The position numbers and the translations under genes are program-made. A stretch of 64,000 nucleotides of DNA from contig OY759308.1 of NCBI GenBank assembly GCA_963662235.1, positions 182,109 to 246,108 of the forward strand, given 5' to 3'. Origin of the DNA: Desulfobacterales bacterium. Its GTDB lineage: Bacteria > Desulfobacterota > Desulfobacteria > Desulfobacterales > G963662235. Within the stretch, counting starts at the first letter, position 1. Every line of letters begins with the position of its first letter. The notes under the pieces are model-generated. The model saw only the letters and a list, made by a program, of their open reading frames with translations, ran no database searches and was not told the DNA's origin. This document shows, one piece after another, positions 832-45,254 of the stretch.

Positions 832-2573
832 AATTAAAATTTTTAAATAAACAAACACTGTTCCTATTTTTTTTAACTATCCTCACTTTTGCTATCTATT
901 TCCAAGTAGTTAATTTCGATTTTCTAAGCTATGATGACCACACCTATATACTTGATAATGCTAATGTTAAATCTGGTTTTAACTTTAAATCTATAAAATG
1001 GGCATTCACAAAAAGTTATGCTGCAAACTGGCATCCCATAACTTGGTTAAGTCATACCCTTGACTATTTACTATTTAAAGAAAACGCAGGTTATCACCAT
1101 CTTGAAAACGTTTTTTTTCATATAATAAACTCTATTCTACTCTTCTTTGTTATGTTAAAAATTACACGGCGTTCTGGACAAAGTATGTTCATTACGCTCT
1201 TTTTTGCTATACATCCCATTCATGTCGAATCTGTAGCGTGGATAGCAGAACGCAAAGACCTTCTAAGTACACTCTTTGGTTTTGCATCAATATACTGTTA
1301 TCTAAACTACGGAAATACAAAAGAAAAAAAACACTACTTCTATTCATTTCTGTTTTTTGCACTAAGTCTTATGTGCAAATCTATGTTTGTAACCCTGCCC
1401 TTTGTGTTTTTGCTTCTTGATTTATGGCCTCTTAAAAGATTTACAAAATTAAAGGATAAAACTTTCTATACTTTAATAATTGAAAAAATACCTTTTTTTA
1501 CCCTCACTATTTTAATCTCCATAGTTATCTTTATTGCTCAAGTTGAAGGTAAAGCTGTAAAACCTATAGCCGAACTTCCAATAAGTTTAAGGTTTGCAAA
1601 TATGTTTTTCTCCTATGGCAATTATGTTCTAAAAATGGTTGTCCCTCATAATCTTGCTCTTATGACTCAAAACATAGATGTAAAATTCCTGCACCATAAA
1701 TTCATTGTTGAAGCTATTACAAAAACTCTTATTGCACTGAGTCTTATAGTTATCGTCTCTTGTTTTTGTATAAAAAAAATAAAAGAGAAACCTTACTATT
1801 TTGTTGGTTGGTTTTGGTTTTTAGGAACTCTTGTTCCTGTTATAGGATTGGTTCAAATTGGTGCACAAGGTATGGCAGATAGATATACATATTTCCCATC
1901 AATTGGCTTTTCTATTTTTTTTATAACTCTTTTAAATAATGTTTTTGTAAAAATAAAAAAGGAAAGGGTTTTAATTGCAATAGGTCTTATAACTGCTTTT
2001 ATCTTTACTATTCTAACGTACAAACAAATCGGCTATTGGGAAAATACCATTACAATTTTCACAAGAACTATAAAAATCGCTGAAACAGGTAAAAAAGGTT
2101 TTTTTGTAAGCCCTATTGTTCATAGAAGTATGGCGATTGCATATACAAAAGAGCAAAAATTCAAAGAGGCTCAAAGACATCTATGGGTATTATACTCTAA
2201 CGATAAAAAAGATTCTAATACTATATACAACATTGCTCTCATATCTTTAAAATTAAATGAATATGACGTTGCAGAAGATTTTTTCCTAAAAGGAATAAAT
2301 TTAAACAAAAATGATATTGGTGCTTATAATGGATTAGGCATAGTCTATTTAAAAAAAGGAGAGAGAGAAAAAGCTATAGAATATTTTAAAAAAGCTCTTG
2401 AGCTCGACCCAAATAATGTCAATTTCTATATCAATTTAGGTTCTACCCTTGCAAACCTTGGAAAGTATAGTGAAGCTATGGAATATTTTGAAAAGGCATT
2501 GGGCATTGAACCTTATAACCAAGCAGCTATGTATAGTTATCAAAAGATTTTAACTATAATCAAAAAAAAATAA
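828..2573 (+). CDS. Polytopic membrane protein with C-terminal TPR repeats (TMTC/PMT-like glycosyltransferase-fold family)
   Basis: 581-aa ORF whose ATG overlaps the ychF stop (ATGA). The first ~400 aa carry many hydrophobic segments. The C-terminus has TPR repeats (GAYNGLGIVYLKKGEREKAIEYFKKALELDPNN, YINLGSTLANLGKYSEAMEYFEKALGIEP). Confidence 0.6.
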   Translation: MKLKFLNKQTLFLFFLTILTFAIYFQVVNFDFLSYDDHTYILDNANVKSGFNFKSIKWAFTKSYAANWHPITWLSHTLDYLLFKENAGYHHLENVFFHIINSILLFFVMLKITRRSGQSMFITLFFAIHPIHVESVAWIAERKDLLSTLFGFASIYCYLNYGNTKEKKHYFYSFLFFALSLMCKSMFVTLPFVFLLLDLWPLKRFTKLKDKTFYTLIIEKIPFFTLTILISIVIFIAQVEGKAVKPIAELPISLRFANMFFSYGNYVLKMVVPHNLALMTQNIDVKFLHHKFIVEAITKTLIALSLIVIVSCFCIKKIKEKPYYFVGWFWFLGTLVPVIGLVQIGAQGMADRYTYFPSIGFSIFFITLLNNVFVKIKKERVLIAIGLITAFIFTILTYKQIGYWENTITIFTRTIKIAETGKKGFFVSPIVHRSMAIAYTKEQKFKEAQRHLWVLYSNDKKDSNTIYNIALISLKLNEYDVAEDFFLKGINLNKNDIGAYNGLGIVYLKKGEREKAIEYFKKALELDPNNVNFYINLGSTLANLGKYSEAMEYFEKALGIEPYNQAAMYSYQKILTIIKKK

Positions 2574-2590
2574 GACCTTTGCACATAATG
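2574..2590 (-). repeat. Solo MITE terminal repeat (End-B type) directly after the stop codon of the upstream gene
   Basis: GACCTTTGCACATAATGTTTTTT starts one base after the TAA at 2571-2573. It is identical to the reverse complement of the End-B terminus of the full MITE copies (AAAAACATTATGTGCAAAGGTCTC). Confidence 0.6.
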
Positions 2591-2608
2591 TTTTTTATGA
2601 GTGTGATT

Positions 2609-3172
2609 TTAAAATTGACTAATATTAGAAAAATGACTTGGAAAAACTGGTTGGGCAAAATAACAAATATATTCATTATCATTACCTCTTATACGCTTGT
2701 ATGTAAAAGTATGGATAACTATTAATGAACTGTTAAAATTATTGCTATAAAATAGAGACGATATATATTTTGTTTTTTTTGAACTACTTTTTTGGGTATG
2801 AATTTGACCAATCTTACTATCTTCTAAAATATAGAATAAACTATTAAACGAAATTTCGTCATCAGCTTTTTTATTTTTTTCTAAAGAGGTTATAAATTTA
2901 GAACCTAATTGTCTTATAGGGATTTCATTATTGACGAACCATTCTTTATTTTTGTCAAAATATTGTAAAAAAAAAGATTTATTAAACCCTAACAACTCCC
3001 ATTCTAATACCTTCTCTTCATCAGAATAGTCATATACATTTTGAGATATAATTTCATACTCTTCTTTTTTATACGTTACGAAATAGCCTATTTCTAATTG
3101 TTTAAGCCTATCTTCTCCGCAACTATCCCCAACATTGCTTGTAAGGAAAATTTCTGTATATTTTTTAAACAT
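2609..3172 (-). CDS. Hypothetical protein (weak resemblance to DUF4178-type proteins)
   Basis: 187-aa ORF convergent with the upstream gene. No diagnostic motif found. The EEYEIISQNVYDYSDEEKVLEWELLGFN segment recalls DUF4178, but this is not verified. Confidence 0.4.
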   Translation of the reverse strand: MFKKYTEIFLTSNVGDSCGEDRLKQLEIGYFVTYKKEEYEIISQNVYDYSDEEKVLEWELLGFNKSFFLQYFDKNKEWFVNNEIPIRQLGSKFITSLEKNKKADDEISFNSLFYILEDSKIGQIHTQKSSSKKTKYISSLFYSNNFNSSLIVIHTFTYKRIRGNDNEYICYFAQPVFPSHFSNISQF

Positions 3173-6875: not shown

Positions 6876-7766
6876 GTGTTTTCAAGAAAACATCCATATC
6901 TATTTTTTATATTAGTTTTTATTTCTATAACCTCTTTTTCATCTGCTTTAATGTTGTTTTTAGGCAACAATAAAAAAAAAGAGTTTATTAATAGCTCCGA
7001 AACTGTCGGTATAATTGAAATTAAAGGCATTATCGAAGATTCTAAAGAAGTTTTGGAGCTATTAAAAGAACTTAGAGAAAATAACAAAATTAAATCTATA
7101 CTGTTGCGTATAGAATCTCCAGGAGGTGCAGTCGGACCTTCTCAAGAAATTTATCAAGAAGTCCTTAAAACCAAAAAAAAGAAAAAAGTTATAGTCTCAT
7201 TTGGAACTATTGGAACATCAGGTGCTTACTATATTGCCTCTGCAGCGGATGGTATTATGGCTGTTCCCGGAACTGTAACTGGCAGTATCGGTGTTTTAAT
7301 GGTGTATAATAATTTTCAAGAATTATTAAGCAAGATAGGTTTAAGCACTAAAGTTATAAAAAGCGTACAATATAAAGATATAGGCTCTCCAAATCGCCAA
7401 ATGAGTGACGCTGAAAAAAAAATCTTACAAGACTTTGTTGAAAAACTTCATACCCAATTTATAAACGATATCGCATACGGTCGTAATATGGAGCTTCTTA
7501 AAGTACAAGAACTCGCAGATGGTAGAATATATACAGGAGAAGAGGCACGTGACCTTAAATTGATAGACAAATTGGGTAACTATCAAGATGCTATTGAATG
7601 GGCAGGACGAGTTGCAGGTATAAAAGGTAAAATAGACACTTACTATCCTCAAAAGAATCAAAGCTTTATGGAAAAAATCCTTGATATGAAAAGCTTAAGT
7701 AATATCTCTAAAGTTATATTCCATCCAAGTAGTTATGCTGCTTTTCTTTATGCTCCATCTCTATAG
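6876..7766 (+). CDS. sppA: Signal peptide peptidase SppA, 36K type (peptidase S49)
   Basis: GTG start and an N-terminal TM helix. S49 signatures are ESPGGAVGPSQEIYQEV and GTSGAYYIASAADGIMAVPGTVTGSIGV. Confidence 0.85.
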   Translation: MFSRKHPYLFFILVFISITSFSSALMLFLGNNKKKEFINSSETVGIIEIKGIIEDSKEVLELLKELRENNKIKSILLRIESPGGAVGPSQEIYQEVLKTKKKKKVIVSFGTIGTSGAYYIASAADGIMAVPGTVTGSIGVLMVYNNFQELLSKIGLSTKVIKSVQYKDIGSPNRQMSDAEKKILQDFVEKLHTQFINDIAYGRNMELLKVQELADGRIYTGEEARDLKLIDKLGNYQDAIEWAGRVAGIKGKIDTYYPQKNQSFMEKILDMKSLSNISKVIFHPSSYAAFLYAPSL

Positions 7767-7784
7767 AGACCTTTGCACATAATG
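7767..7784 (-). repeat. Solo MITE terminal repeat (End-B type) filling the sppA / next-gene junction
   Basis: AGACCTTTGCACATAATG begins right after the sppA TAG (7764-7766). Its ATG (7782-7784) is the most plausible start of the next CDS. Confidence 0.6.
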
Positions 7785-8729
7785 TTTTTAGATAAAATTT
7801 TTAAAAAAAAGAAACAGAATGTCTTTCCCAAAAAACTTCAAAACAAGATAGTCGCTATTTTAAAAGAGAAGAAAAATTGTAAAAGCAAAAGCGAAGAGAG
7901 AAATTACTTAGAAAATGCCGAAGAGATTTTTTCTGAAATAAGGCTTGCGTTTGATAAAAACAAAAACTCTTTAACAAATAGCGTTATAAACAAAATAGTA
8001 TTAGGCGAGTTCGATAAAGCAGAAAACATTTTAAACAAATCGATTGAAGAAAACGAAAAAAAAACAAACATAAAATTATACGATTTCTATAGATTAGCAC
8101 TCCTTAAAAAATTGGCGTTAGAGTATAAACAAAGCGAGGAATATTATACAAAAGCGTTAAAAATTGAATCTTCTGATACACTTATCCTAAAATCTTATGC
8201 TAACTTATTACTCTCTTACAAAAAACCCAAAACAGCACTTAAATTTTTACTCAAAGCCCTTAAAGAAGAAAAAATAAGGTTCGGAAATAAAAGCCCAATT
8301 ATAGCCGAAAGTTATAGTAAAATAGCTTACGCTTACACACTATTAGAACAAAAAGAAAAAATCTTTTTTTACCTTAAAGAAGCTCTTATTATAAATGAAA
8401 ATACATTTGGAAAGTTTCATATAAAAACAGGCGACTCTTTAAAAGCTATCGCTATGTTTTTTGCAAAATCAGAAGAAGGGAAAAAAAATGCTATTAAGTA
8501 TTTTGAACAAGCCCTTGATATTTACGAAAAAACCTATGGAGAAAAAAATCTTGAAACTGCCTATCTTATGCTCCATTTTGCAAACTTGCTTTACAATTTA
8601 GAAGAAAAAAAAAGTGCTTTAAACTATTTTGAAAAAAGCGAAAAAGTTTTTACAATTTTTTTCGGCCCAGACGACCCTACAACAAAGTATGCTGTATTTA
8701 AAAAAGAGTTAATAGATATGAAAAAATAA
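7782..8729 (+). CDS. TPR repeat protein
   Basis: The ORF track starts at TTG 7773, inside the repeat; I prefer the ATG at 7782 (MFLDKIFKKKK...). Multiple TPR-like helical repeats are present (YSKIAYAYTLLEQKEKIFFYLKEALIINE, AIKYFEQALDIYEKTYGEKNLETA). Confidence 0.6.
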   Translation: MFLDKIFKKKKQNVFPKKLQNKIVAILKEKKNCKSKSEERNYLENAEEIFSEIRLAFDKNKNSLTNSVINKIVLGEFDKAENILNKSIEENEKKTNIKLYDFYRLALLKKLALEYKQSEEYYTKALKIESSDTLILKSYANLLLSYKKPKTALKFLLKALKEEKIRFGNKSPIIAESYSKIAYAYTLLEQKEKIFFYLKEALIINENTFGKFHIKTGDSLKAIAMFFAKSEEGKKNAIKYFEQALDIYEKTYGEKNLETAYLMLHFANLLYNLEEKKSALNYFEKSEKVFTIFFGPDDPTTKYAVFKKELIDMKK

Positions 8730-8839
8730 AAGTTCTATTTCCTTTTACATTTTCAAAACAAACTCTAAAACCACCATATTAAATGATTTAAACCCCTTTT
8801 TTTACCGTCTTAATTTCTTCATTTAACTTATAAACTATG

Positions 8840-8856
8840 TTATGTGCAAAGGTTTA
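8840..8856 (+). repeat. Solo MITE terminal repeat (End-B type), inverted relative to the one at 7767
   Basis: TTATGTGCAAAGGTTT matches the End-B terminus. Together with 7767-7784 it brackets the TPR gene with inverted copies of the same terminus. Confidence 0.5.
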
Positions 8857-11492: not shown

Positions 11493-11500
11493 AATTATAA

Positions 11501-11680
11501 GACCTTTGCACATAGCTCTATTTTTTAATATTTTTGCGGTGCAGTAGTATTTGCATACGTCAAACCCAAAAATATTATAAAAGAGAGCGTTAGTTTTTAG
11601 TGTCATATATATATTATGAACAAGTTATTATTCTACTAAAAAACTGATATTTTTGACAAAAAAATTATGTGCAAAGGTCT
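11501..11680 (+). mobile_element. MITE, subfamily 1, full copy (180 bp)
   Basis: Terminal inverted repeats are GACCTTTGCACATAGC (left) and TTATGTGCAAAGGTCT (right). The internal hairpin is TAATATTTTTG / CAAAAATATTA around the conserved loop GGTGCAGTAGTATTTGCATACGTCAAAC. It lies between clpB and tRNA-Thr. Confidence 0.85.
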
Positions 11681-11693
11681 ACTTCATAAAACA

Positions 11694-13289: not shown

Positions 13290-13904
13290 TTATGGACGTT
13301 TCATCTCCAAAGTAGTCTCAACAGGGTTGATAGTCATAGCACCATATTTAAAATACTTTTTTTTGTTAACCTTTATCTCTTTTTTTATTTGAAACCCTTT
13401 TGCATTTTTTAAGAAAGTTCCCTTTTTCTTAGCATCAACTAATACAGCATAATAGGTTGGATCGTATTGAGAAAAAACGAACTTTTTTGGGGTTTTTATA
13501 ATGGCAACGTAACAAGGTATAAAGAAAGAGTATCTCACTTTTTTGTCTATAAGAAATGCTCTAAAATTTTTTATATACTGAACCTTAAAAGGTTTTTTAT
13601 CTATTTCAATATCGGTAAAATAGTTATAGTTTTTTAGATAATCAAAATAGTTTTTTTTTATCTCACTTTCCTCGTTCGCTTCAAACTTACCGTTCTTATT
13701 TATATCAAAATCTTCGCTTATCATAACAGAAGAGAACTCATCAAACTCCCAATTTACAAAAACTCCCTCAAGCCCTTTTTCATTAAAAACAAAAACAGTC
13801 TGCTTAGTAATAAACATATGAGGATGAGCACTTAGGTTCCGGGTAGTAAAAAAGAGAGAGACTAATATAAAAAAAACATTAAAATATTGAATAATTTTTT
13901 TCAT
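13290..13904 (-). CDS. DUF1007 periplasmic protein (partner of the NicO-like permease)
   Basis: A signal-peptide-like N-terminus is followed by AHPHMFITKQTVFVFNEKGLEGVFVNWEFDEFSS, the typical DUF1007 start. I prefer the ATG at 13904 (MKKIIQYF...) over 13925. Confidence 0.65.
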   Translation of the reverse strand: MKKIIQYFNVFFILVSLFFTTRNLSAHPHMFITKQTVFVFNEKGLEGVFVNWEFDEFSSVMISEDFDINKNGKFEANEESEIKKNYFDYLKNYNYFTDIEIDKKPFKVQYIKNFRAFLIDKKVRYSFFIPCYVAIIKTPKKFVFSQYDPTYYAVLVDAKKKGTFLKNAKGFQIKKEIKVNKKKYFKYGAMTINPVETTLEMKRP

Positions 13905-13962
13905 AAAATATCTCTTAAAACACATAGTGGAAAAAACTCTTTTCCCAAAAAAACGAACTGTT

Positions 13963-14541
13963 TTATTCTTGATTTTCTTCTATTATTTTTGCCATCCATT
14001 CAGGAATCCTTATTTCATCCTGTGGATAGAACTCCTTTACAAAGGGTTTTATATCAATAACGGGGCTTCCGTTCACAGCATCTAATCCACTTACATACAA
14101 AATGTTTTTCTCCCGTTTGTGCAGTTTTACAACAGTAACAAGAATAGGATTAGGACGCGCTGGGCTACATGTTGAAAAAATTCCAACATTGGGATTTTCT
14201 TTTCTCCCCATAGGATGCACTTTTGTTAAAAGTCGGCTTTTTTCAGGAACCTTGTTTGCCCAATACAAAATTGTAATATGGGAATATTTTTCAATGTCTT
14301 CAATAGTCTCAATCAACTCTTCATTAATAATGATTTCTGAAACTTCCTTGTGCATCTTACGAATATTTCGCCTGACATCATCAAGATCCCCCTTCATTTT
14401 TATACCGTCGTCTTCGGCACTTAGAAAAGGTTTTTTTATCTTATTTTTTATTGTGCCTACTGGTCGAAGCACTATTTGTGATAATTTTTTATTTTGTAAA
14501 GTAGTTACATCTTTTTTAGATTTTTCCAAATTTTCCTCCAT
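13963..14541 (-). CDS. TsaA/TrmO (YaeB) family SAM-dependent methyltransferase-like protein
   Basis: Family motifs are present: VGTIKNKIK..., HITILYWANK, GIFSTCSPARPNPILVTVVKL, GLDAVNGSPVIDIKPF. Confidence 0.75.
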   Translation of the reverse strand: MEENLEKSKKDVTTLQNKKLSQIVLRPVGTIKNKIKKPFLSAEDDGIKMKGDLDDVRRNIRKMHKEVSEIIINEELIETIEDIEKYSHITILYWANKVPEKSRLLTKVHPMGRKENPNVGIFSTCSPARPNPILVTVVKLHKREKNILYVSGLDAVNGSPVIDIKPFVKEFYPQDEIRIPEWMAKIIEENQE

Positions 14542-14592
14542 TAATTTTTGCTATTAGCAACAACATAGAGCTTATCAGAGCTTGACATTTAG

Positions 14593-14789
14593 GAGAGCTT
14601 TGCACAAGCGCATTTTTTAAGAATTTAAAACAAACAATGTTTTTTATTCTTAAGATTTTTTTAAGGGTAAATGCCCTAAAAAGCTTATTATACATAGCTT
14701 GCCTTCTTTTGCCCTTTTTTTTGGTTCGATGTATAAACATACTACTTTACCAAAAAAAAGAACAAAGTCAGGCATTGTTCAAAGCTCTC
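14593..14789 (-). mobile_element. MITE, subfamily 2, full copy (197 bp)
   Basis: Termini are GAGAGCTTTGCACAAGCGC (left) and GCATTGTTCAAAGCTCTC (right). On the minus strand the hairpin is CTTTTTTTTGG / CCAAAAAAAAG around the loop TAAAGTAGTATGTTTATACATCGAA. The flanks read tTTAGg / TTAGGc, a possible 5-bp TSD. The copy sits exactly at the AT-rich / GC-richer compositional boundary. Confidence 0.8.
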
Positions 14790-15914
14790 TTAGGCTAAAA
14801 TTTTGTTGCCCCTCTTAAGAATGCCGTTACCAGTAAATTCATAATAGGCTACATCTGGGGCACAACCCCGACAAAATTGTTGCCCATCGTATTCCACAAT
14901 TCTGTTTGCCATAACACTTTCACCACATTGGGCACAAATAATATTGTCTTCCATGCGGGCATATTCTGGAATAGATGTGTTTACTTCTTTGATAAAAAAT
15001 AGGCTCTCTGGCTTGATGTCGGTCATACGAAAAGCAACTTCTTGAGCAAGCTGAGAGAAACGGGCACGATTTTTTGGTGTGCGTTCTCCTTTTTTTACCA
15101 CCTTGGTAAACATCTTTTGAAATTCTGGGGAGATATCTTGCAGGCGTTCATTAAAATCGGGCTTAACAGCATAACGCACACCATTACCACTGCGGTCGGT
15201 CAAGGTGACAGCGGTTTTGCCATATTCTCGATAAATCAACGAATTGTTGCCAACTGTGCAACCGGTAACAAATTGAATACCATCCACAAAACAACTATTG
15301 ATTTCAACAATTGCCAGCAGCTCTTCCAAACCGTCCGAGATTTCGGAAATATGACTCATAGCATATGTGCCAGCCAACACTCCGATAGCAAGACCTGGAC
15401 AGTAATGCCCGTGTAATTGTCCAGCTTTTAAAAGCAAGGTTTTTATATCTTTGTGTCGTAAGTAGCGAACATATTCTCCGCGAGGATTGCTTTTCAGACG
15501 ATGCTCTTCGATTTTTTTCTGCTCTTCGGTATCCAAACTATTATTATACGGTTTGATATCAAGCACTGGTGTGCCGTCAATAGCATCCAACCCCTTTACT
15601 CGCAACTTACAACCATTTCTTTCCAACAGTTTGACCGTTGTCAGTCCCAAAGCACTCGGTCTTCGTGGACTGCAACACGCAAACACACCTTTTATTGTGC
15701 CGTTGTAGGTTTTCGGCTTCAATACCAATTCCGATGAAGATTGATGAAAATTAAAAATCACCTGAATATAAGGGTTTTCTTCAATACGATACAATCCTTC
15801 CTCAAATTCCTTATGAATGATGATGGTACTCTCCCATTTTCGCATTTCAAATGGATCAGTATGTTTCGTAAAGCGACTTTTGACAACTCCGATTTCTTGA
15901 ATGTGATATGTCAT
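14790..15914 (-). CDS. Fusion protein: TsaA/TrmO-like domain + FmdE-family domain + C-terminal Cys4 zinc ribbon
   Basis: The N-terminal part has IGVVKSRF..., GVFACCSPRRPSALGLTTVKL and GLDAIDGTPVLDIKPY. The C-terminal part has LHGHYCPGLAIGVLAG, FVDGIQFVTGCTVGN and CAQCGES...FCRGC. I prefer the ATG at 15914 (MTYHIQEIG); the longer ORF-track N-terminus overlaps the upstream gene. Confidence 0.75.
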   Translation of the reverse strand: MTYHIQEIGVVKSRFTKHTDPFEMRKWESTIIIHKEFEEGLYRIEENPYIQVIFNFHQSSSELVLKPKTYNGTIKGVFACCSPRRPSALGLTTVKLLERNGCKLRVKGLDAIDGTPVLDIKPYNNSLDTEEQKKIEEHRLKSNPRGEYVRYLRHKDIKTLLLKAGQLHGHYCPGLAIGVLAGTYAMSHISEISDGLEELLAIVEINSCFVDGIQFVTGCTVGNNSLIYREYGKTAVTLTDRSGNGVRYAVKPDFNERLQDISPEFQKMFTKVVKKGERTPKNRARFSQLAQEVAFRMTDIKPESLFFIKEVNTSIPEYARMEDNIICAQCGESVMANRIVEYDGQQFCRGCAPDVAYYEFTGNGILKRGNKILA

Positions 15915-15924
15915 ATTTTTCTCT

Positions 15925-16710
15925 TTATTCTGTAGGGATAATGATAGAATAACCGTGCAGTTCCTCGACTGCCACAGAAACATCATACACAGCAGAAATA
16001 ACTTCGGGCGTAACACATTTTCTATCTCCGGCTGCGAAAATCATACCGTCTTTTAAAAACACAAACTTGTCAGCATATCGCAAAGCCAAGTTAAGATCGT
16101 GCATAGTCATAATGGCAGACACTTCATGTCCCTGAACAATTTTTTTAATCAATGTTAAGATTTCAAGTTGATTTTTTAAATCTAAACTGCTGGTTGGTTC
16201 ATCTAATAATAATACTTCGGGCTGTTGAACCAAAGCCCTGGCAATATTGACTTTTTGCTGTTCACCTCCGCTCATCTCATCTAAATATTGTAGAGATAGT
16301 TGTTCCATATGCAAACTGTCAATAGCACCGTTCACAATTTTTAAATCTTGTTCTGATGTACGCCAAGTGATGTGCGGTCGCCGTCCCAACAAAATTGCAT
16401 CAAACACAGTTATGCGTCCCGGTTGAGTGCGTTGCGAAACATAGCCAATTTTGCGAGCAATCGACATTTGATCAAGTCCCAACACATCCACATTATCCAC
16501 CAAAACAGTTCCAATTTTTGGGCATAAAATAGCGTTCATACATTTAAGCAGTGTGGTTTTACCTACTCCGTTTGGACCTAAAATCGCCAGAAGTTCATGA
16601 TGATTTACAGAAAAATCTATCTCCTTAAGCACTGGTCGACTGCGATATTGAAATGTTACACCGTCCACCGTAAGCACTGCAAAATCTTTCATCTGTTCCT
16701 TATCTTGCAT
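15925..16710 (-). CDS. ABC transporter ATP-binding protein (FecE/FepC/BtuD type)
   Basis: Walker A GPNGVGKTT, signature MSGGEQQKV and Walker B LLLDEPTSSLD are present. It lies in an operon with a FecCD-type permease. Confidence 0.9.
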   Translation of the reverse strand: MQDKEQMKDFAVLTVDGVTFQYRSRPVLKEIDFSVNHHELLAILGPNGVGKTTLLKCMNAILCPKIGTVLVDNVDVLGLDQMSIARKIGYVSQRTQPGRITVFDAILLGRRPHITWRTSEQDLKIVNGAIDSLHMEQLSLQYLDEMSGGEQQKVNIARALVQQPEVLLLDEPTSSLDLKNQLEILTLIKKIVQGHEVSAIMTMHDLNLALRYADKFVFLKDGMIFAAGDRKCVTPEVISAVYDVSVAVEELHGYSIIIPTE

Positions 16711-16723
16711 TAATAATTGCCCC

Positions 16724-17794
16724 TTATCGCCGATAGCCCTTGATAATTAAATAAAGAAACACTGGTGCACCTAAAAACGATGTCAAAATCGCAACTGGTA
16801 GCACATTTGGGGCTAACAGAAGTCGTGCCACAGTGTCTGCGGCTAATAACAACAACCCCCCCAGCACACAACTTCCAGGAATCAAAAAACGGTGATCGTC
16901 ACCGATAAGCCGACGCACAGCATGAGGACACACCAATCCAACAAAACCTATAATGCCTAAAAATCCGATAATGCAAGCTGTAATTAGCGAAGCACAAAGC
17001 ATTCCTATCAGGCGAACTCGTTCAACCGGCACACCTAACCCTTTTGCTTGTTCATCTCCCACATCAATAGCATTGTAATTCCAACTATTCCATATAAAAT
17101 AGAGCGTCACAAGTGTAACTATTCCACTCATCACGCCTAATTCAAGCCAGCTTGTGCGAGCAGTATCGCCGAAAGTCCAAAAGACCATTGCAGCTAATTG
17201 ATTATCATCTGCAAAATATTGTAAAAACATAGTTCCAGCAGTAAACAAAGACCCTAAGGCGACCCCAGCCAATACCATCACTTCGGGCGATGCTTGCCTG
17301 TGTTTGGATATTAGCAAAATCACACCCATCGCCACTATACAAAATATGAACGCCATTAGTGTGGTTAGCGGTAGACTGGTCAGCGTAATCGCATCTGCAC
17401 CAGTGCTATGCATAGCTCCTGTTCCAAGCACCATTACGGAAAATGCCGCACCAAACGCCGCAGCTTGAGAAATGCCCAATGTAAATGGAGAACCAAGCGG
17501 ATTGCGCAGAATAGATTGCATCGACACGCCCGCCACCGATAATCCACAACCTGCAACAATTGCGGTAAGTGCCTGAGGCAACCTGATATTCCAAATTATA
17601 ATATCCCAGCGTTTCGACACACTTTGTCCAATCAAGGTTCTCGCCACATCCAACACAGGAATTCTAACCACGCCAAGAGACACCGATAGAATCAACATAA
17701 ATGTCAGCACCACCAGTCCTATAATAATATAAAGAACTTTTCGGCCAATATACTGCTGATATGCTGTTGGAATTTTTGTATGATCAAGGTGCAT
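16724..17794 (-). CDS. FecCD/BtuC family ABC transporter permease
   Basis: 356 aa, about 9-10 TM segments, with typical motifs RLPQALTAIVAGCGLSVAGVSMQSILRNPLGSPFTLGIS and VAILTSFLGAPVFLYLI. Confidence 0.9.
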   Translation of the reverse strand: MHLDHTKIPTAYQQYIGRKVLYIIIGLVVLTFMLILSVSLGVVRIPVLDVARTLIGQSVSKRWDIIIWNIRLPQALTAIVAGCGLSVAGVSMQSILRNPLGSPFTLGISQAAAFGAAFSVMVLGTGAMHSTGADAITLTSLPLTTLMAFIFCIVAMGVILLISKHRQASPEVMVLAGVALGSLFTAGTMFLQYFADDNQLAAMVFWTFGDTARTSWLELGVMSGIVTLVTLYFIWNSWNYNAIDVGDEQAKGLGVPVERVRLIGMLCASLITACIIGFLGIIGFVGLVCPHAVRRLIGDDHRFLIPGSCVLGGLLLLAADTVARLLLAPNVLPVAILTSFLGAPVFLYLIIKGYRR

Positions 17795-17798
17795 AAGG

Positions 17799-18950
17799 TT
17801 ACTTTGTTTCCACTACAATACGCTGAAATACCGTATTGTTAAACGCTTTGTTCATTTGTGCAAACACCGGTTTGCCCACAAGAAATTCATAGATTTCATC
17901 TGCCTTTATGGCTGGATCAATGTCCTGAAACTGTTTCGGATACAATTTTTTACCAATATAATAGGCATCAGCTAATATGGAACCAAAATTACGGGTGTAC
18001 CAATTATATGGCAAAACACCGTACACATTGTTAGATTTTACAGCTTTCAAAGATTGATATGCTGGATCGTTCTTTAGTTCGTAAATTGCCGTAGCCTTCG
18101 GGTCGGACTGTATAGTAGAAAGATCAACAAACAGCCGTTCTGGGTTCCATTCGATAATTTTCTCTTTGGCAACATCAGCATGCGACAAATTTGCATCACC
18201 CTTCGACGAATCGTACGCCACATTGGCAGCATTGGTAAAAAGAAACGGTGGATACAACGGTTCAGTAGATTGGAAACCATGCGGACCTTTCTTTGCAATA
18301 CCACCGACATAGCAGGAAATCTTGTCGGTCTCCGAAATAGAGCTGGTGCGATTTTGAAGCTCTTTAATGTGAGATTCAAAAAAGGCAATCAGTGCCTCAG
18401 CACGCTCCACTTTTCCCATCACGCGTCCCATAATTCTAAGCGATTGATACATCTGTTTTCGCCCACTACCTGCTAAATCGCCGTATTCCAAAACGATAAC
18501 GGGGATACCAGTTTTTTGTTGTAGCTCTTCCGGATTGTATCCCATTTTCCCATAAGTTTTAAAAATAACCTGAGGTTGTTGTTCAAGTCCAACAATTAAC
18601 TCTGGGTTATCAAACCCACGGAATTCACCAAACAACGGGTATGTTTTGAATTGTGGATTTGCCAAAGCATATGGACGGGCATCAAATTGAGTTTTCTTAG
18701 CTTCAATACTATCAACCGCAACAATGTGGTCTTGAGCCTGAAGGTAGGTAAGATATCGCAAACATCCAGGGCCAGAACAAATTACACGCTTCACTGAAAC
18801 TGGAACGGTTACATTCCGATTCCAACTATCTTCAATTGTTATAGTTTTATCATTTGCGAATGTTTTAACACAAAACAGGCAACTAAGACCTATCCAGATA
18901 CTCAAAACGATTCCACCAATATAACACACCTTCCCAAGTGGTTGTTTCAT
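17799..18950 (-). CDS. Periplasmic substrate-binding protein (class 8 SBP; iron-chelate or corrinoid type)
   Basis: N-terminal signal/TM segment, a RVICSGPG... start and overall FepB/BtuF-like length. It is the first gene of the ABC operon. Confidence 0.75.
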   Translation of the reverse strand: MKQPLGKVCYIGGIVLSIWIGLSCLFCVKTFANDKTITIEDSWNRNVTVPVSVKRVICSGPGCLRYLTYLQAQDHIVAVDSIEAKKTQFDARPYALANPQFKTYPLFGEFRGFDNPELIVGLEQQPQVIFKTYGKMGYNPEELQQKTGIPVIVLEYGDLAGSGRKQMYQSLRIMGRVMGKVERAEALIAFFESHIKELQNRTSSISETDKISCYVGGIAKKGPHGFQSTEPLYPPFLFTNAANVAYDSSKGDANLSHADVAKEKIIEWNPERLFVDLSTIQSDPKATAIYELKNDPAYQSLKAVKSNNVYGVLPYNWYTRNFGSILADAYYIGKKLYPKQFQDIDPAIKADEIYEFLVGKPVFAQMNKAFNNTVFQRIVVETK

Positions 18951-19189
18951 AGCTATCTCCTTTTCTTATTTTTTTCATATCACCTTATATAAGTGCTACT
19001 TTTGAACATTAAATAACAATAAAAATATTTTTTACAATTTAAATTGTTGTTATTATTGGTTTTGTGTCAAAACAAGGAATAACTTTTTAAAAAAAATGGT
19101 GTTTTAAAGGAAGAGAAAAGCGAATAGTTTTAGTGTTTTAGCTCGCTCCCAAGCTCTTAGAGACTGGAACACAATAGTTTTTACAAAAA

Positions 19190-19313
19190 TCCCAAAAACT
19201 CGCTCCCAAGCTCCTGCTTGGGAGCGTATATCTTCTGATAATGTGCGTTTTTTGTCTTGTATGCGTTCCCACAAGCGGGAGCTTGGGAACGAAGTTGGTA
19301 GGGCAAAAATTTT
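19190..19313 (+). repeat. REP-like repeat A (two GC-rich hairpins), direct repeat of 20948-21063
   Basis: Contains CGCTCCCAAGC-tcct-GCTTGGGAGCG and CGTTCCCACAAGC-ggga-GCTTGGGAACG. By eye it is roughly nine-tenths identical to copy B, in the same orientation. Confidence 0.8.
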
Positions 19314-19381: not shown

Positions 19382-20755
19382 TTATTTTTTTTGTTTTTTT
19401 AAATAATCGCTCCACCATAAGCCTTTGTATCTATCATTACATTTTTTTACTTCATAATTTGGTTCAAATAGTTTTGGATTTATATTTTTTAATTTTTCTT
19501 TTAATTCGGGGGCTAAGTTCTTTACATTCCAAAGAGAAAAAACTTTTGATAACTGCTCTGCTGTTAAGTTTTTTGCATTTTTTAAATTTGCCTTGCGAAA
19601 TAATGCATTTTCAAGATGAGATCCCAAAAGGTCTGCTTTTTCAAGATGAGCACAACCAAGGTCTGCATTTTCAAGATGAGCTCCCTCAAGGTTTGCATTT
19701 TCAAGATGAGCTCCCTCAAGGTTTGCATTTTCAAGATGAGCTTCCCAACAAAGGTCTGCATTTTCAAGATGAGCTTCCCGAAGGTCTGCATTTTCAAGAT
19801 GAGCTTCCCGAAGGTCTGCATTTTCAAGATGAGCTTCCCGAAGGTCTGCTTTTTCAAGATGAGCACAACCAAGGTCTGCATTTTCAAGATAAGCGAACAA
19901 AAGGTTTGCATTTTCAAGATGAGCTTCCCAACAAAGGTCTGCATTTTCAAGATGAGCTTCCCAACAAAGGTCTGCATTTTCAAGATGAGCTTCCCAACAA
20001 AGGTCTGCATTTTCAAGATGAGCTTCCCGAAGGTCTGCATTTTCAAGATGAGCTTCCCGAAGGTCTGCATTTTCAAGATGAGCTCCTTTTAAATCAAATC
20101 CATAAAGTTCTCCTACCTCTTTCCCTTTTATTACTTTGGTTTTTTGTGCCCAATCTTCAACAAGTTGTTTTAGTTGTTCTACTGCAGGTTCATATCTTAT
20201 ATTTTTAATTGGCAAAAAAGAAATTATTATCGAAAAAGGATTCCATATAGAAGGTTCATAAGGACAAAGCATATTTTGGACATCGTCAATTCTTGAAAAA
20301 GCAATTTTCATATCTTTTGAAATTTGTGCATAAATTGCATTCATTCTATTTTCAATTTTATCTGCTCTATTTTCATATCTATTTGAAGCAATACCGAAAA
20401 GGGCAACATAAATACCAACTAACCATAAAAAAAAAGTTGCAGGACGGCGATAAGTTGGGAGTTTTTCATCTTCATTTAAAGGCGGTTTTATTTTAGTCCA
20501 AATATAACGAACACCACTAAAATCCCAAACCAACCACTTCCTGTTTTCCCTTACTTTAATAAATTTTATGAATAAAAAAGGAAGTTTAATTATAAACCTG
20601 ATGAATAAAATAAGATATTTAATTGCAAACCTGATGAATAAAAAAGGAAGTTTAATTATAAACCAGATGAATAAAAAAGGGAATTCAATTATAAACAATA
20701 AGGATAGAGCAATGTTCTTAATAAAATCCTTTACAATTGAAAGCACCTTGTTCAT
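19382..20755 (-). CDS. Membrane-anchored pentapeptide-repeat protein
   Basis: 457 aa. The N-terminus has 11-aa hydrophobic repeats (FIIKLPFLFIR x4). The C-terminal half has A(D/N)LxX pentapeptides arranged as AHLENADLRE units. Confidence 0.85.
   Translation of the reverse strand: MNKVLSIVKDFIKNIALSLLFIIEFPFLFIWFIIKLPFLFIRFAIKYLILFIRFIIKLPFLFIKFIKVRENRKWLVWDFSGVRYIWTKIKPPLNEDEKLPTYRRPATFFLWLVGIYVALFGIASNRYENRADKIENRMNAIYAQISKDMKIAFSRIDDVQNMLCPYEPSIWNPFSIIISFLPIKNIRYEPAVEQLKQLVEDWAQKTKVIKGKEVGELYGFDLKGAHLENADLREAHLENADLREAHLENADLCWEAHLENADLCWEAHLENADLCWEAHLENANLLFAYLENADLGCAHLEKADLREAHLENADLREAHLENADLREAHLENADLCWEAHLENANLEGAHLENANLEGAHLENADLGCAHLEKADLLGSHLENALFRKANLKNAKNLTAEQLSKVFSLWNVKNLAPELKEKLKNINPKLFEPNYEVKKCNDRYKGLWWSDYLKKQKK
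19600..20085. repeat. Near-perfect 30/33-nt tandem repeats encoding the pentapeptide-repeat region
   Basis: GGTCTGCATTTTCAAGATGAGCTTCCCGAA and a 33-nt variant (..CCCAACAAA..) are iterated about 15 times with very few substitutions. Confidence 0.9.
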
Positions 20756-20947
20756 TTTTTATTCCTTTTTTTATTGTTTTTTATAGCTTTCTGCTTTGTC
20801 TCTTCTTGCCACTTTTAAACCATCAAATCAACACACTCTTTTTTTAGTTTATTCGTTCAATTCAGCCTTTTTATCAATATAATCTTCCAAAAAATCCCAA
20901 TCTTGTAGAGGTTGTGATATAATAATTTCCCCAAATAAACCAAAAAA

Positions 20948-21063
20948 CCCAAAAAGCTCGCTCCCAAGCTCCTGCTTGGGAGCGTATATCTTCTGATAGT
21001 GTGCGTTTTTTGTTTTGTATGCGTTCCCAAGCAGGAGCTTGGGAACGAAGTTGGTAGGGACAA
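20948..21063 (+). repeat. REP-like repeat B (two GC-rich hairpins), direct repeat of 19190-19313
   Basis: Contains CGCTCCCAAGC-tcct-GCTTGGGAGCG and CGTTCCCAAGC-agga-GCTTGGGAACG. Confidence 0.8.
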
Positions 21064-21121: not shown

Positions 21122-21586
21122 AATCGTAGGGGCGTATTGCCATACGCCCTCTCAACAATGCAATCACCATCAAAAACAATTGGTGCAATTGTTCGTGGAT
21201 TTTAATCTGCTGTAACAAAACAGATAAATCACTTGATACAAACACTTAGTCAAAAATTGTGGTAACGCAATTATTATGAGAGCTTTGCACATAGCTCTAT
21301 TTTGTAATATTTTTGTGGTGAAGTAGTATATTAATACGTCGAACCCAAAAATATTACAAAAGAGAGCGTCAGTCTTTATAGGGTTTTTAGGAGCTTTTGT
21401 GAAATTATCAAAAGTTGATATTTTATTAAAAACTACTATTTTTTCATAAAAAAACATTATGTGCAAAGCTCTCTATTATGAACATATCATACGCAATGAA
21501 AAAATGAGCATGGGCGTATAGCAATACGCCCCTACGAAAAAACAAATTGTACGGAAATGATTGAATATTACAGGAAGACCTTTAGG
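21122..21586 (+). pseudogene. Decayed RayT-type (REP-associated Y1) transposase C-terminal relic, copy 1, interrupted by a MITE
   Basis: Translates as VGAYCHTP...SPSKTIGAIVRGF*SAVTKQINHLIQTLSQKLW*RNYYE | MITE | HIIRNEK, with in-frame TAA stops. It is bounded by GGGCGTAT-tgcc-ATACGCCC-type hairpins. Confidence 0.7.
21278..21473 (+). mobile_element. MITE, subfamily 1, full copy (196 bp) with 6-bp TSD TATTAT
   Basis: GAGAGCTTTGCACATAGC...CATTATGTGCAAAGCTCTC is flanked by TATTAT at 21272-21277 and 21474-21479. The paralogous uninterrupted site at 47911-47926 reads GCAATTATTATGAACAT. Confidence 0.95.
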
Positions 21587-21960
21587 AAAGGACTCTTTTA
21601 TTGAAGCAATAAAATGTATTTTAAACCTAAGGCTTAAACCACAAAAACCCAAACCTAAAAGGAAAAATAAGTAAGGTGTCCCCAGAATTCTCAGAATGTC
21701 CCACACTTCAAAATAAGATACTTTAGTGTTGAGACCCTGATTCTCTTTCGCCTATCGTCGAGCCCTCTTAATCTTCCTTAAAAGGGAGAGACAAAAATTT
21801 CTTTAGTTTCAAAGCTATTAGGTTTTAATGTATAATTTTTTTCATTCTTTTATAAGTATGCACAAATCTACGCAGGCTATTGGTGACGCATTTCAACTTA
21901 GCATTCTTTTATTAAAAATCATATGCTTGACATTTAATGCATACCGTTATAGTTGTGACT

Positions 21961-22236
21961 ATGATAAAAAATTTTAAATGCAAGCATACACAAGCCCTTT
22001 ATGAAGGAAATAGCCCAAAGCAATTTAGAACTTTTCAGGCACAAGCAGAACGCAAGCTCCAAATGCTTGACAGTGCAGTCGAATTGCTTGATTTACTGTC
22101 TCCACCCGGTAATCGATTTGAAAAATTAGGAGGCGACAGACATGGGCAATACAGCATAAGAATCAATAAACAATGGCGTGTGTGCTTTTCGTGGTCTGAT
22201 GAACCATATAATGTGGAGATAACAGACTATCATTAG
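21961..22236 (+). CDS. higB: HigB-type toxin (RelE/ParE superfamily killer protein)
   Basis: MIKNFKCKHTQALYEGNSPKQF...PPGNRFEKLGGDRHGQYSIRINKQWRVCFSW...NVEITDYH is the typical HigB (COG3549) pattern. The ATG at 21961 is preferred. Confidence 0.85.
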   Translation: MIKNFKCKHTQALYEGNSPKQFRTFQAQAERKLQMLDSAVELLDLLSPPGNRFEKLGGDRHGQYSIRINKQWRVCFSWSDEPYNVEITDYH

Positions 22237-22244
22237 GAGAAACT

Positions 22245-22544
22245 ATGAATAATGTGCGAGCAATCCATCCAGGAGAAATAATCAAAGAAGAGTATTTAAA
22301 ACCATTAAATATGAGTGCTAATGCTTTGGCTATTGCTTTACGCGTGCCGGCACCTCGGATTAATGATGTGATAAGACAAAAGAGAGGAATTAGTGTTGAT
22401 ACTGCCCTTAGATTGGCCAGGTACTTCAACACCACCCCACAATTTTGGATGAATCTGCAAATAAGTTATGACATCAAAATGGCCAAACAAAATGTGCTAA
22501 AAATAGAAAATGAAATTATTCCTTTACAAGCTATAACTGCTTGA
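22245..22544 (+). CDS. higA: HigA-type antitoxin (XRE-family HTH)
   Basis: IHPGEIIKEEYLKPLNMSANALAIALRVPAPRINDVIRQKRGISVDTALRLARYFNTTPQFWMNLQ is canonical HigA/VapI. It starts 8 nt after higB. Confidence 0.9.
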   Translation: MNNVRAIHPGEIIKEEYLKPLNMSANALAIALRVPAPRINDVIRQKRGISVDTALRLARYFNTTPQFWMNLQISYDIKMAKQNVLKIENEIIPLQAITA

Positions 22545-22667
22545 AAATGCAAGAGAAAATATTTTGGAAGACACCTTACTTAATTATTGGCAAAAAGATT
22601 TATATTTCAAATTATGTATAATTTTTTTGATTTTACTATTAAATCTAAACTTACATTTTTTTAAACC

Positions 22668-24145: not shown

Positions 24146-24215
24146 GAGAGTTTTGCACAAACGCTAATTTTTTAAAAATTTTACGATAATTGAAACTTTG
24201 AATTTAAAAAATCAA
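24146..24215 (-). repeat. MITE subfamily-2 end fragment (End-B' only)
   Basis: GAGAGTTTTGCACAAACGCTAATTTTTTAAAAATTT...AACTTTGAA aligns with the reverse complement of the right end of the 42016-42211 copy (GAGACCTTTGAACAAACGCTAATTTTTAAAAAATTT...AACTTTGAA). Confidence 0.6.
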
Positions 24216-24314
24216 AGAATCATTTTTTTTAAAAAAACACTTAGATTTAAAGGCTTGTCCTCTTTTGCCCATTTTTCAAGTTCGAAGTATTAATATACAT
24301 CTTTACCCAGTCTA

Positions 24315-35479: not shown

Positions 35480-35886
35480 ATTTATTGATTCTGAAAGAAT
35501 GGTAATAAATATAAAGGGTGCAAAGGGCATGAAAGATAGAATATCTTTGCTTTCGAAGCATTTGCTTGAATTATTACGAAATTACTTCAAAGCATATAAA
35601 CCTAAAAAATATCTCTTTGAAGGTCAAAATGGAGGTAAATATTTGCCAACCAGTGTGGCAAATATTTTAAAGAAAGCGGTACTGAAAGCTGGAATCTGTA
35701 AAACCGTGACTACCACATATGCTACGCCACAGTTTTGCAACTCATCTTCTTGAACAAGGCACTGATTTAAGATATATTCAGGATTTGTTGGGGCATAATA
35801 GTTCAAAAACGACTGAAATTTATACTCATGTATCAAAAAAGGCAATTGATAAGATTAGAAACCCAGTCAATGATTTTTTTGATTGA
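35480..35886 (+). pseudogene. Tyrosine recombinase (XerC/D-like), 5'-truncated and frameshifted C-terminal fragment
   Basis: ...IDSERMVINIKGAKGMKDRISLLSKHLLELLRNYFKAYKPKKYLFEGQNGGKYLPTSVANILKKAVLKAGI.KTVT / frameshift near 35710 / [56 protein letters not shown]. The catalytic-region motifs KDR, H.LRH, LLGH and IYTHV are present. Confidence 0.85.
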
Positions 35887-35980
35887 GGAGATCAAAATGA
35901 TAAAAGAAAAATATATACAATTGTGCTTAGCCCGCCAGTTTGGAGAAATAAACACAATAGAGTTTACACAATCGTTAGCG
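35887..35980 (+). other. attI-like junction, copy 1, ending in core site GTTAGCG (35974-35980)
   Basis: This 94-bp segment follows the recombinase stop and is duplicated at 42278-42371. Strong similarity between the copies falls off just past the GTTAG core. Confidence 0.6.
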
Positions 35981-36047
35981 CCAAGTATAGAAAAAACCGT
36001 GCAACAGTAAATAATAATTGAACCAATATCAGGTAATAAATAAACAA

Positions 36048-41646: not shown

Positions 41647-42015
41647 AAATAAAGGGGTCAAGTCCTCTCTTGGCTCTTTAGCTGTTTTTTAATAAAAAAT
41701 GATATGTCCAGACCATTAAGAATACAATATCCAGATGCCTGGTATCATGTAATAAATCGTGGTAGACGAGGTGAAAAGATATTTTTGTCAAAGGAAGATT
41801 ATCAATCTTTTATTATTCTTCTTAAAGAGCTTAACGAAGTATATAATGTTAAAATAGTAGCTTATTGCCTCATGGAAAACCATTACCACCTCCTGATAAA
41901 AACACCTGATGCAAATCTTTCCAGGGCAATGAGACATTTAAATGGTGTCTACACACAGCGATATAATAAACGTCACAATTATGATGGGCAGCTTTTTAGA
42001 GGGCGTTATAAATCT
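41647..42015 (+). pseudogene. IS-like element left part with the N-terminal half of the Y1-HUH transposase, truncated by a MITE
   Basis: The left TIR GGGGTCAAGTCCTCTCTTGGC is at 41654. The ORF from 41704 reads MSRPLRIQYPDAWYHVINRGRRGEKIF...CLMENHYHLLIKTPDANLSRAMRHLNGVYTQRYNKRHNYDGQLFRGRYKS (HUH motif HYH). It ends at the MITE boundary at 42016. Confidence 0.8.
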
Positions 42016-42211
42016 GAGACCTTTGAACAATGTCATTTTTGTTCAATTTGAGGGTAAAGTAGTATATTAATACTTCAAGCCCGAAAATCGGGCAAAACAT
42101 GGCAAGCCTTTTAATATAAGCTTTTTAAAAGAAAAAGTAATGTTTTGTTTTTAAAGTTCAAAGTTCAAATTTAACAAATTTTTTAAAAATTAGCGTTTGT
42201 TCAAAGGTCTC
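42016..42211 (+). mobile_element. MITE, subfamily 2, full copy (196 bp) at a rearrangement junction (no TSD)
   Basis: GAGACCTTTGAACAATG...GCGTTTGTTCAAAGGTCTC. The left flank is transposase coding sequence (aaatct). The right flank is the recombinase 3' end (atactc). Confidence 0.8.
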
Positions 42212-45222: not shown

Positions 45223-45254
45223 ACAAGCAAAAAAACATACTGCAAAATTAGAGC

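Follow-up and report, generated by a model that had tools for sequence, protein, structure and literature searches.

A strain-variable family of miniature inverted-repeat elements with IS5-type ends and 6-bp target-site duplications in a Desulfobacterales bacterium

We describe a family of miniature transposable elements with inverted repeats (MITEs) in a 64-kb stretch of genomic DNA (hereafter, the window; contig OY759308.1 of assembly GCA_963662235.1) from a Desulfobacterales bacterium. The element derives from a DDE insertion sequence (IS), is non-coding and 150-280 bp long, and has kept only the ends recognised by a transposase. Its insertion duplicates 6 bp of AT-rich target, occasionally 4-5 bp. 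The most probable explanation, in our assessment, is that these are non-autonomous DDE elements mobilised in trans by an IS5-family transposase. The transposase supplied in trans would bind both MITE ends, excise or copy the element and insert it through staggered cuts 6 bp apart, and some copies would later have decayed to solo ends or served as junctions for recombination. Judging from the terminal repeat, the supplier would be an IS5-family transposase of the NF033581 type (DUF772 plus DDE_Tnp_1), with ISPg1/IS1126 and ISNme1 as known relatives. An initial annotation, made from the letters of the window, had already proposed a MITE family, and the small size, the lack of coding capacity, the terminal inverted repeats (TIRs), the 6-bp target-site duplications (TSDs), the dispersed copies and the exact filled and empty sites all bear this out.

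For comparison, we used a close relative strain (ENA ERZ21862600 contig_2), of which three stretches (~57 kb) cover most of the window's synteny. To count termini, we took matches to the 16-mer GAGACCTTTGCACATA with at most three mismatches on both strands, with dinucleotide-preserving shuffles as the null; the window contains 23 matches versus 0.44 ± 0.73 in the shuffles. Extraction and BLAST located seven full copies (149-208 bp; 149-281 bp when those of the relative are included), four partial copies and five short solo ends, recovering the seven full copies, the partial copies and the solo termini that the initial annotation had reported. Together they amount to ~2.0 kb, or 3.2% of the window, at about one locus per 4 kb:

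Positions 21278-21473, plus strand: the copy first reported, 196 bp, subfamily 1, with left terminal repeat (TIR-L) at 21278-21293 (GAGAGCTTTGCACATA) and right terminal repeat (TIR-R) at 21458-21473
Positions 21272-21277: left TSD of that copy, TATTAT; the right copy of the TSD is at 21474-21479
Positions 11499-11681, plus strand: older subfamily-1 copy, 183 bp, without a TSD, between clpB and a tRNA gene, common to the relative
Positions 14593-14789, minus strand: subfamily-2 copy found in the window only, 197 bp, at the stop codon of an FmdE/TrmO-domain gene
Positions 42016-42211, plus strand: subfamily-2 copy, 196 bp, without a TSD
Positions 53707-53855, minus strand: subfamily-1 copy with an internal deletion, 149 bp, TSD ACTATT, common to the relative
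Positions 56069-56264, plus strand: subfamily-1 copy, 196 bp, without a TSD, apparently in a nested cluster
Positions 59589-59796, plus strand: 208-bp variant with an inserted GC-rich hairpin segment, TSD GTTATT
Positions 24146-24308, minus strand: partial subfamily-2 copy that has lost its hairpin-side (TIR-L) end
Positions 55954-56065, 56283-56403 and 59428-59554: other partial copies
Positions 2572-2610, plus strand: solo right-end fragment
Positions 7766-7802, 8830-8856, 59797-59836 and 62814-62838: further solo ends

The ends of all full copies pair as inverted repeats, with the 16-nt consensus GAGA(C/G)CTTTG(C/A)ACA...; on an autonomous parent, the end sequence expected in inverted orientation would be GAGASCTTTGCACA. 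The first-reported copy reads TATTAT-GAGAGCTTTGCACATA...TATGTGCAAAGCTCTC-TATTAT, so that its end is GAGAGC rather than the GAGACC given initially, and it shares 99.5% identity with a copy that the relative has at a different locus (stretch L109, 4367-4563). Every copy lies between genes or within dead mobile-element sequence. None has coding capacity beyond spurious open reading frames (ORFs), and a six-frame hidden Markov model (HMM) search of the copies found no similarity to IS5-type transposases. Alignment of all distinct copies confirms the two subfamilies noticed at the outset, which share the TIRs and a block ~15-95 nt from the left end. The 14789 end of the 14593 copy was set by comparison with the empty site of the relative. 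The copy at 56069 adjoins the partial subfamily-2 copy at 55954-56065 and the partial reverse copy at 56283-56403; the 208-bp variant at 59589 is likewise clustered, with the partial copy at 59428-59554 and the end fragment at 59797-59836.

Compared with the 196-bp form, the 208-bp variant has an extra internal GC-rich segment, CGCCTTTCGGCGAACCCCCCTTAATCCCCCTTTAAAGGGG (59669-59763, and again at 59428-59522). A related motif also occurs outside the MITEs at ~21745-21800, and the segment may represent a small palindromic element of its own inside the MITE. Several solo ends touch genes. Two genes, ending at 2573 and 7766, have stop codons that overlap with the initial bases of solo termini, and the start codon called in the relative for a TPR gene (7782-8729) falls within a solo MITE terminus (CACATA-ATG). 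We considered and rejected the inverted termini at 7766...8856 as an autonomous or passenger-carrying element: the enclosed ORF encodes the TPR protein and the pair has no TSD.

The three 6-bp duplications claimed initially, TATTAT, ACTATT and GTTATT, are exact when checked base by base, and they belong to three of the seven full window copies. The chance of a 6-bp flank match at such spacing, measured empirically in the window, is 4-6e-4 per site, which gives a probability of ~3e-9 for at least three of seven. At a match rate of 4-6 per 10,000 positions, three TSDs in seven copies are not a product of chance. The four full copies without a clean 6-bp TSD have individual explanations: the ends of the 11499 copy are degenerate (AAGACC / TAGACC), the 56069 copy sits in a cluster of nested fragments, the 42016 copy lies at a rearrangement junction, and the 14593 copy is flanked by a duplication of 4-5 bp, TTAG(G). 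Across both strains, we count six independent perfect 6-bp TSDs (TATTAT, ACTATT, GTTATT, AAAGTT, TTTCTT and, at a subfamily-2 copy, a second GTTATT). The initial annotation had allowed for the possibility that copies elsewhere lack TSDs; among 12 independent full copies in ~120 kb, six TSDs are perfect, one matches at 5/6 positions and one is 4-5 bp long.

In element orientation, the TSDs of the six subfamily-1 insertions concerned (window 21272, 53701 and 59583; L109 4361, 15911 and 21303) read TATTAT, AATAGT, GTTATT, AACTTT, TTTCTT and CATAGT. All end in T, which suggests that there may be an orientation-linked target preference or an ambiguous terminal base. The sequence alone fits a 5-bp TSD plus an element-borne T as well as it fits a 6-bp TSD, but the 5-bp parse is asymmetric and the subfamily-2 copy gives it no support.

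Insertion can be read directly from a pair of paralogous relics of a RayT-like gene (a REP-associated Y1 transposase; REP, repetitive extragenic palindromic):

Positions 21122-21586, plus strand: relic A, split by the first-reported MITE and bounded by GGGGCGTATTGCCATACGCCC-type hairpins
Positions 47764-48027, plus strand: relic B, with an uninterrupted (empty) TATTAT at 47915-47920

The two parts of relic A (21122-21277 and 21474-21586) are 97-99% identical to relic B. The alignment offset shifts by 202 bp, which is the 196 bp of the MITE plus the 6-bp duplication, and relic B reads GCAAT-TATTAT-GAACAT at 47910-47926 with no interruption. When its two stop codons are repaired, the relic matches NF047646 (REP-associated tyrosine transposase) at E 1.5e-7, below the curated cutoff, and Y1_Tnp weakly. 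The pair had initially been held to prove insertion. The exact duplication of TATTAT stands, whereas the direction of the event does not follow from the pair, which shows insertion or excision, and the events in the relics of the two strains are not all independent.

Comparison with the relative adds further filled and empty sites. The aligned DNA is 94-99% identical, mostly 97-98%, and in the ~50 kb compared, five orthologous or near-orthologous sites differ, four of them with a copy in the relative alone and one with a copy in the window alone:

Positions 8738-8744: empty in the window; occupied in the relative by a 196-bp copy, TSD TTTCTT
Positions 13923-13928: empty in the window (CATAGT); the relative has a copy flanked by CATAGT / (C)ATACT
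Relic B, TATTAT site: empty in the window; filled in the relative by the 208-bp variant, with a TATTAT duplication
Positions 48085-48090: empty in the window (GTTATT); the relative has a 281-bp subfamily-2 copy with a perfect GTTATT duplication
Positions 14593-14789: filled in the window only; the empty site of the relative reads ..GATATTTAGGCTAAAA.., and the insertion, at the upstream gene's stop codon, duplicated 4-5 bp

A separate ~60-bp indel lies close to the 13930 site. A further copy in the relative, beyond the range of the window, has the TSD AAAGTT and is 99.5% identical to the first-reported copy. The copies at 11499, 21278, 24146, 53707, 55954, 56069 and 59428-59836 are present in both strains and are thus older. 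Both subfamilies have gained copies since the two strains, 97-98% identical, diverged, and the impression of an active family given by the initial annotation is backed by these presence/absence differences.

The terminal repeat ties the family to IS5. The initial annotation had looked to the 6-bp AT-rich TSD to narrow down the superfamily; that pointer did not serve, as the assignment came from the terminal repeat and the sampled members of the family duplicate 5 bp. A scan of genome contigs with the 15-mer AGASCTTTGCACATA gave, among the matches listed, mostly chance hits and neither a source genome nor a parent element; it did, however, lead to IS5-type elements at contig ends. In a Flavobacteriales metagenome-assembled genome and an uncultured Flavobacteriaceae genome, the 15-17-nt terminus lies at contig ends and is followed by an ORF of the form MSYK..MSFASYDV.RRTSKNKFFKEI..LI.W. 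This peptide matches the IS5-family transposase of Capnocytophaga canimorsus plasmid pCC7, whose element has the ends GAGACCTGTGCACGATA / GAGTCCTTTGCAAGACC and a 5-bp duplication, CTAAT. The 15-17-nt terminus is found 40-60 nt upstream of the start of an IS5-type transposase in three Flavobacteriales genomes. A profile search returned 1262 relatives with PF05598 (DUF772) and PF01609 (DDE_Tnp_1), and all three transposases tested score above the cutoff of NF033581 (IS5 family). Full-length elements of this type measure 1.27-1.35 kb with the ends GAGACCTTTGCAC.../...TGCAAAGGTCTC, and inverted ends GAGACCTTTGCA(C/A)... occur on contigs and metagenome loci that encode such transposases. The MITE terminus is identical over 13-17 nt to the ends flanking these genes. 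In Table 2 of Klein et al. 2015, ISPg1 (TIR GAGACCATTGCA) and ISNme1 (TIR GAGACCTTTGCAAAA) are both assigned to the IS5 family, and the MITEs BrickBuilt and MITEPgRS are listed with the same terminus (PMC4596501); Naito et al. 2008 describe MITE464 as having ISPg1 TIRs (PMC2575886). The terminus shared with IS5-type elements, together with the published TIRs, identifies the terminal repeat of the MITE as an IS5-family terminus.

Searches for the parent itself gave little. BLASTN of the MITE against plasmids returned no match, and a TIR scan of viral contigs returned six singletons, none of them adjoining a transposase. Relatives of transposase P0031, which belongs to one of the full-length NF033581-type elements, were not found in viral contigs. 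A protein search with the N-terminal peptide of the transposase with the closest TIR gave three matches, none from the source genome, and none of the best 120 of the 1262 IS5-type matches came from the source contig or the contig of the relative. Two leads were discarded: one locus with two terminus matches (L030) is a coding tandem repeat, and an apparent similarity between the MITE core and the start-codon region of P0031 is unsupported by alignment.

One feature of the MITE goes beyond its ends. Every copy that has the left arm folds there into an ~80-nt stem-loop with a short outer stem, a 16-19-bp A/T-rich stem and an apex, which takes the following form in the first-reported copy:

Positions 21292-21372, plus strand: left-arm stem-loop, with outer GCTCT/AGAGC stem, 16-bp A/T stem and apex GGTGAAGTAGTAT-ATTA-ATACGTCGAACC

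The apex is nearly invariant across the two subfamilies, GGT(G/A)AAGTAGTAT-NTTN-ATACNTC(G/A)A(A/G)CC, and has a purine-rich internal loop. The long stem is variable, and pairing is kept in each of its variants: GTAATATTTTTG/CAAAAATATTAC, GCTTTTGTTTTG/CAAAACAAAAGY, GTAAGATTTTTG/CAAAAATCTTGT and GTTCTTTTTTTTGGT/ACCAAAAAAAAGGGC. On an alignment of ten sequences, RNAalifold gives 27 pairs, 12 of them with compensatory changes on both sides, versus 5.9 such pairs in shuffles; 94.4% of the stem-loop cells are paired, versus 84.0%, and none of 500 shuffles reaches the observed values. Sliding the structure by 1-3 columns lowers pairing to 40-61%. A covariance model of the hairpin matches inside MITE copies only. 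By this comparative evidence, which comes from ~4-5 independent stem variants, the left-arm fold is shown to be maintained.

What the fold is for invites a reading compatible with a MITE mobilised by an IS5-family transposase, namely that the hairpin is the functional core and acts for the host or for the element, by stabilising or processing transcripts, as a small RNA, or as a single-stranded DNA signal for transposition. We regard this as a possibility, with the odds clearly against it. The compensatory stem changes and the conserved apex speak for it, as do the mismatches in the stem, which on the strand from TIR-L to TIR-R are mostly G-T: ~15 G-U cells versus ~4 A-C cells, an excess that hints at single-stranded RNA, or top-strand DNA, as the selected form. 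Eight of 11 scorable copies are also co-directional with their neighbouring genes, but this 8:3 bias is not significant. Template switching in a quasi-palindrome can, moreover, give multi-base compensatory changes in one step, and the number of independent stem variants is small. No Rfam family reaches its gathering score in the MITE, where there are only sub-threshold matches to generic hairpin (miRNA precursor) models; in a scan of the whole window, only a tRNA passes. The hairpin core motif had no match in JGI metagenomes. It is conceivable, if doubtful, that with the maintained stem-loop the MITE spreads a functional module of single-stranded RNA or DNA through the genome; such a module might serve as a signal for protein binding or processing on neighbouring transcripts, or transposition might require its structure besides the TIRs.

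Several observations weigh against mobilisation by an IS5-family transposase. In line with the initial annotation, which had seen no matching transposase in the window, a six-frame HMM search found no cognate transposase in the 64 kb of the window or in the ~57 kb of the relative, and scans of the larger window ORFs against Pfam and NCBIfam found no DDE transposase. Among the full-length IS5-type relatives, the TSD is readable in five cases and is 5 bp long in each (GTCTC, CTAAT, ATTCC, TACAT and AGAGT), whereas the MITE duplicates 6 bp. The subgroups of IS5 make TSDs of differing length (2-9 bp), and we therefore treat 5 versus 6 bp as a difference from the sampled relatives and not as a refutation. 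The interiors do not align: similarity to the sampled relatives, which are distant and belong to other phyla, is limited to the terminal 13-17 nt. Finally, the leaders of 15 full-length IS5-type relatives have no comparable hairpin (z-scores near 0). We accordingly rejected the idea that the MITE hairpin is the inherited leader structure of a parent IS; descent from the sampled relatives does not explain it.

These differences leave room for a MITE moved by a transposase of another family that makes 6-bp TSDs (ISNCY/ISDol1-like, IS1634-like or IS481-like), with a terminus that resembles IS5 by convergence or distant relationship. The mismatch in TSD length, found in every sampled IS5-type relative, favours this, and so does the similarity of the host's SdhA to Desulfobacterales proteins, given that ISDol1 originates in Desulfobacterales and makes 6-7-bp repeats. 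We nevertheless consider it unlikely, as the 13-17 terminal nucleotides are identical to ends flanking IS5-type transposase genes in several genomes and the repeat is assigned to the IS5 family in the literature (PMC4596501).

The relics also raise the question of whether the MITE spread mainly within larger repeats, as relic-plus-MITE composites copied by duplication, recombination or gene conversion. In the relative, there are three copies of the relic, and the TATTAT site is filled in all of them: the orthologue of relic A, a duplicated relic-plus-MITE block, and an sdhB-adjacent copy holding the 208-bp variant. The duplicated block, 527 bp long, spans relic and MITE; over both, its identity to window 21122-21648 is 96.6%, and it was thus duplicated as one unit. 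Because relic and MITE have been copied as a unit and the same site is filled in three copies, not all of the insertion events are independent. Relic B, empty in the window, is 96-98% identical to the duplicated copy of the relative versus 92-93% to the sdhB-adjacent copy and lies at the edge of a variable island, so relic B and the relative's sdhB-adjacent copy are not a clean orthologous pair. The repeated filling of the relic's TATTAT may reflect a hot spot or conversion between copies; the filled/empty logic for the TATTAT duplication holds despite the copying of the relic. The 42016 copy points the same way, as it adjoins sequences of different origin. On its left, it cuts off a Y1_Tnp (IS200-like/RayT-like) ORF (41704-42015, plus strand, E 2e-14); on its right (42212-42280), a tyrosine-recombinase gene contributes its 3' end, and this sequence recurs over ~150 bp at 96% identity at 35835-35985, preceding a 1432-aa ORF at 36018. 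From this arrangement, the copy looks like a MITE-mediated rearrangement junction. As the main route of spread, however, larger repeats are very improbable, because most copies have unrelated flanks and TSDs of their own, and the insertions at 8744, 13930 and 48085 in the relative and at 14593 in the window each consist of a TIR-bounded unit plus a short duplication. The initial annotation had likewise considered that the units might be parts of a larger repeat with different true ends; the extra DNA at the differing sites begins and ends on, or within one base of, GAGA...TCTC, as the relative's empty sites show, so that the units are not pieces of such a repeat.

We give almost no credence to a REP/REPIN-type element moved by a RayT-like Y1 transposase, for although Y1-transposase relics and the truncated Y1_Tnp ORF adjoin or surround MITE copies, these genes are targets disrupted by the MITE and not its partners, and the MITE combines clean TSDs and DDE-type TIRs with a variable stem and a conserved loop, whereas elements of the REP/REPIN type lack the anatomy of TIRs plus TSDs, and what they conserve is the stem, not the loop.

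The window is bacterial, with ~31% G+C. Its genes include the housekeeping and flagellar genes gltX, rpsA, clpB, sdhAB, sucCD, a 2-oxoacid:ferredoxin oxidoreductase, flgL and fliW, as well as a gene for a 3632-aa polyketide-synthase-like protein. SdhA is ~80% identical to Desulfobacterales proteins, a placement from one protein.

Other differences between the strains lie outside the MITE family. At 21716-22648, the window has a ~930-bp segment with a HigB-like toxin and a HigA-like antitoxin, identified by eye from the translations, in place of which the relative has ~150 bp of unrelated sequence. The variable island lies between the polyketide-synthase-like gene and sdhB (window 42415-47579; stretch L110 of the relative, 13745-18272). 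It encodes NB-ARC/NACHT, PDDEXK_4 and DUF6602 proteins in the window, and a TIR-domain protein (the protein domain, not the repeat), BrnT/CopG-like toxin-antitoxin genes and DnaA_C-HTH proteins in the relative; it is probably a defence island with RayT relics at its boundaries. A second dispersed repeat family is made up of hairpins such as CTCCCAAGCTCCTGCTTGGGAG and GTTCCCAAGCGGGAGCTTGGGAAC (window 19185-19303 and 20943-21059; L109 11628-11787). Between gltX and rpsA, a ~550-bp block of this family in the relative corresponds to a short repeat of a different kind (GTAGAGACGCAAGATTTTG...) in the window. On the minus strand, a gene for a pentapeptide-repeat protein (19382-20755) contains 30-nt tandem repeats and, at its 5' end, a 33-nt tandem array; repeat numbers in these arrays (19514-20114 and 20561-20725) are unlike those of the relative.

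The family matters mainly as a live source of variation, with five insertion differences in ~50 kb between strains. Its effects on the genome include an insertion that falls precisely on a stop codon, a copy found at a rearrangement junction and a remnant that provides a called start codon. Short-read assemblies are broken by the family as well (the ends of a 2.3-kb Logan contig appear to fall at positions of the repeat within the window), and recognising it aids assembly, annotation and strain typing of this low-GC Desulfobacterales-like lineage. The conserved hairpin is a small, testable lead on what bacterial MITEs need besides inverted repeats. The current understanding of transposons is unchanged by the finding.

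The element itself is of an ordinary kind, and its ends put it among IS5-family elements, as is the case for several published bacterial MITEs; the covarying left-arm hairpin is the sole feature that goes beyond the ordinary. Small TIR elements such as Correia/NEMIS, ERIC and RUP fold into long hairpins upon co-transcription and can thereby affect the stability of mRNAs or their expression; their fold is mainly a pairing of the two ends, and Correia duplicates TA. The present family differs from them in its TIRs and TSDs and in having a separate left-arm stem-loop with a conserved apex. Full-length NF033581-type IS5 elements, such as those of P0031 and of C. canimorsus pCC7, have the same GAGACCTTTGCAC... 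inverted ends but differ in their length of 1.27-1.35 kb, their 347-374-aa transposase, their 5-bp TSD, the lack of a leader hairpin and a dissimilar interior. The ATR MITEs of Neisseria meningitidis are also AT-rich and small, and their proposed parent, ISNme1 (IS5), was assigned from TIR identity alone, as cited in PMC4596501; the TIR GAGACCTTTGCAAAA shares its first 12 nt with the present family, and ATR differs in its sequence beyond the TIR, in TSD and in host as far as the descriptions given there allow a comparison. Close counterparts are MITEPgRS (MITE464) and BrickBuilt of Porphyromonas gingivalis, non-autonomous partners of the IS5-family element ISPg1 (IS1126), which have the same 12-nt terminus, GAGACCTTTGCA / TGCAAAGGTCTC (PMC4596501; PMC2575886). 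They are likewise non-coding and intergenic, present in tens of copies, strain-variable and linked to rearrangements. Their interiors, however, consist of tandem repeats or a minisatellite and are unrelated to the present family, and the TSDs of BrickBuilt are variable or absent (2-5 bp; PMC4596501), whereas those described here are regularly 6 bp. Their hosts belong to the Bacteroidota and ours is Desulfobacterales-like, and no covarying hairpin has been described for them, in contrast to the stem-loop maintained in the left arm of the present family.

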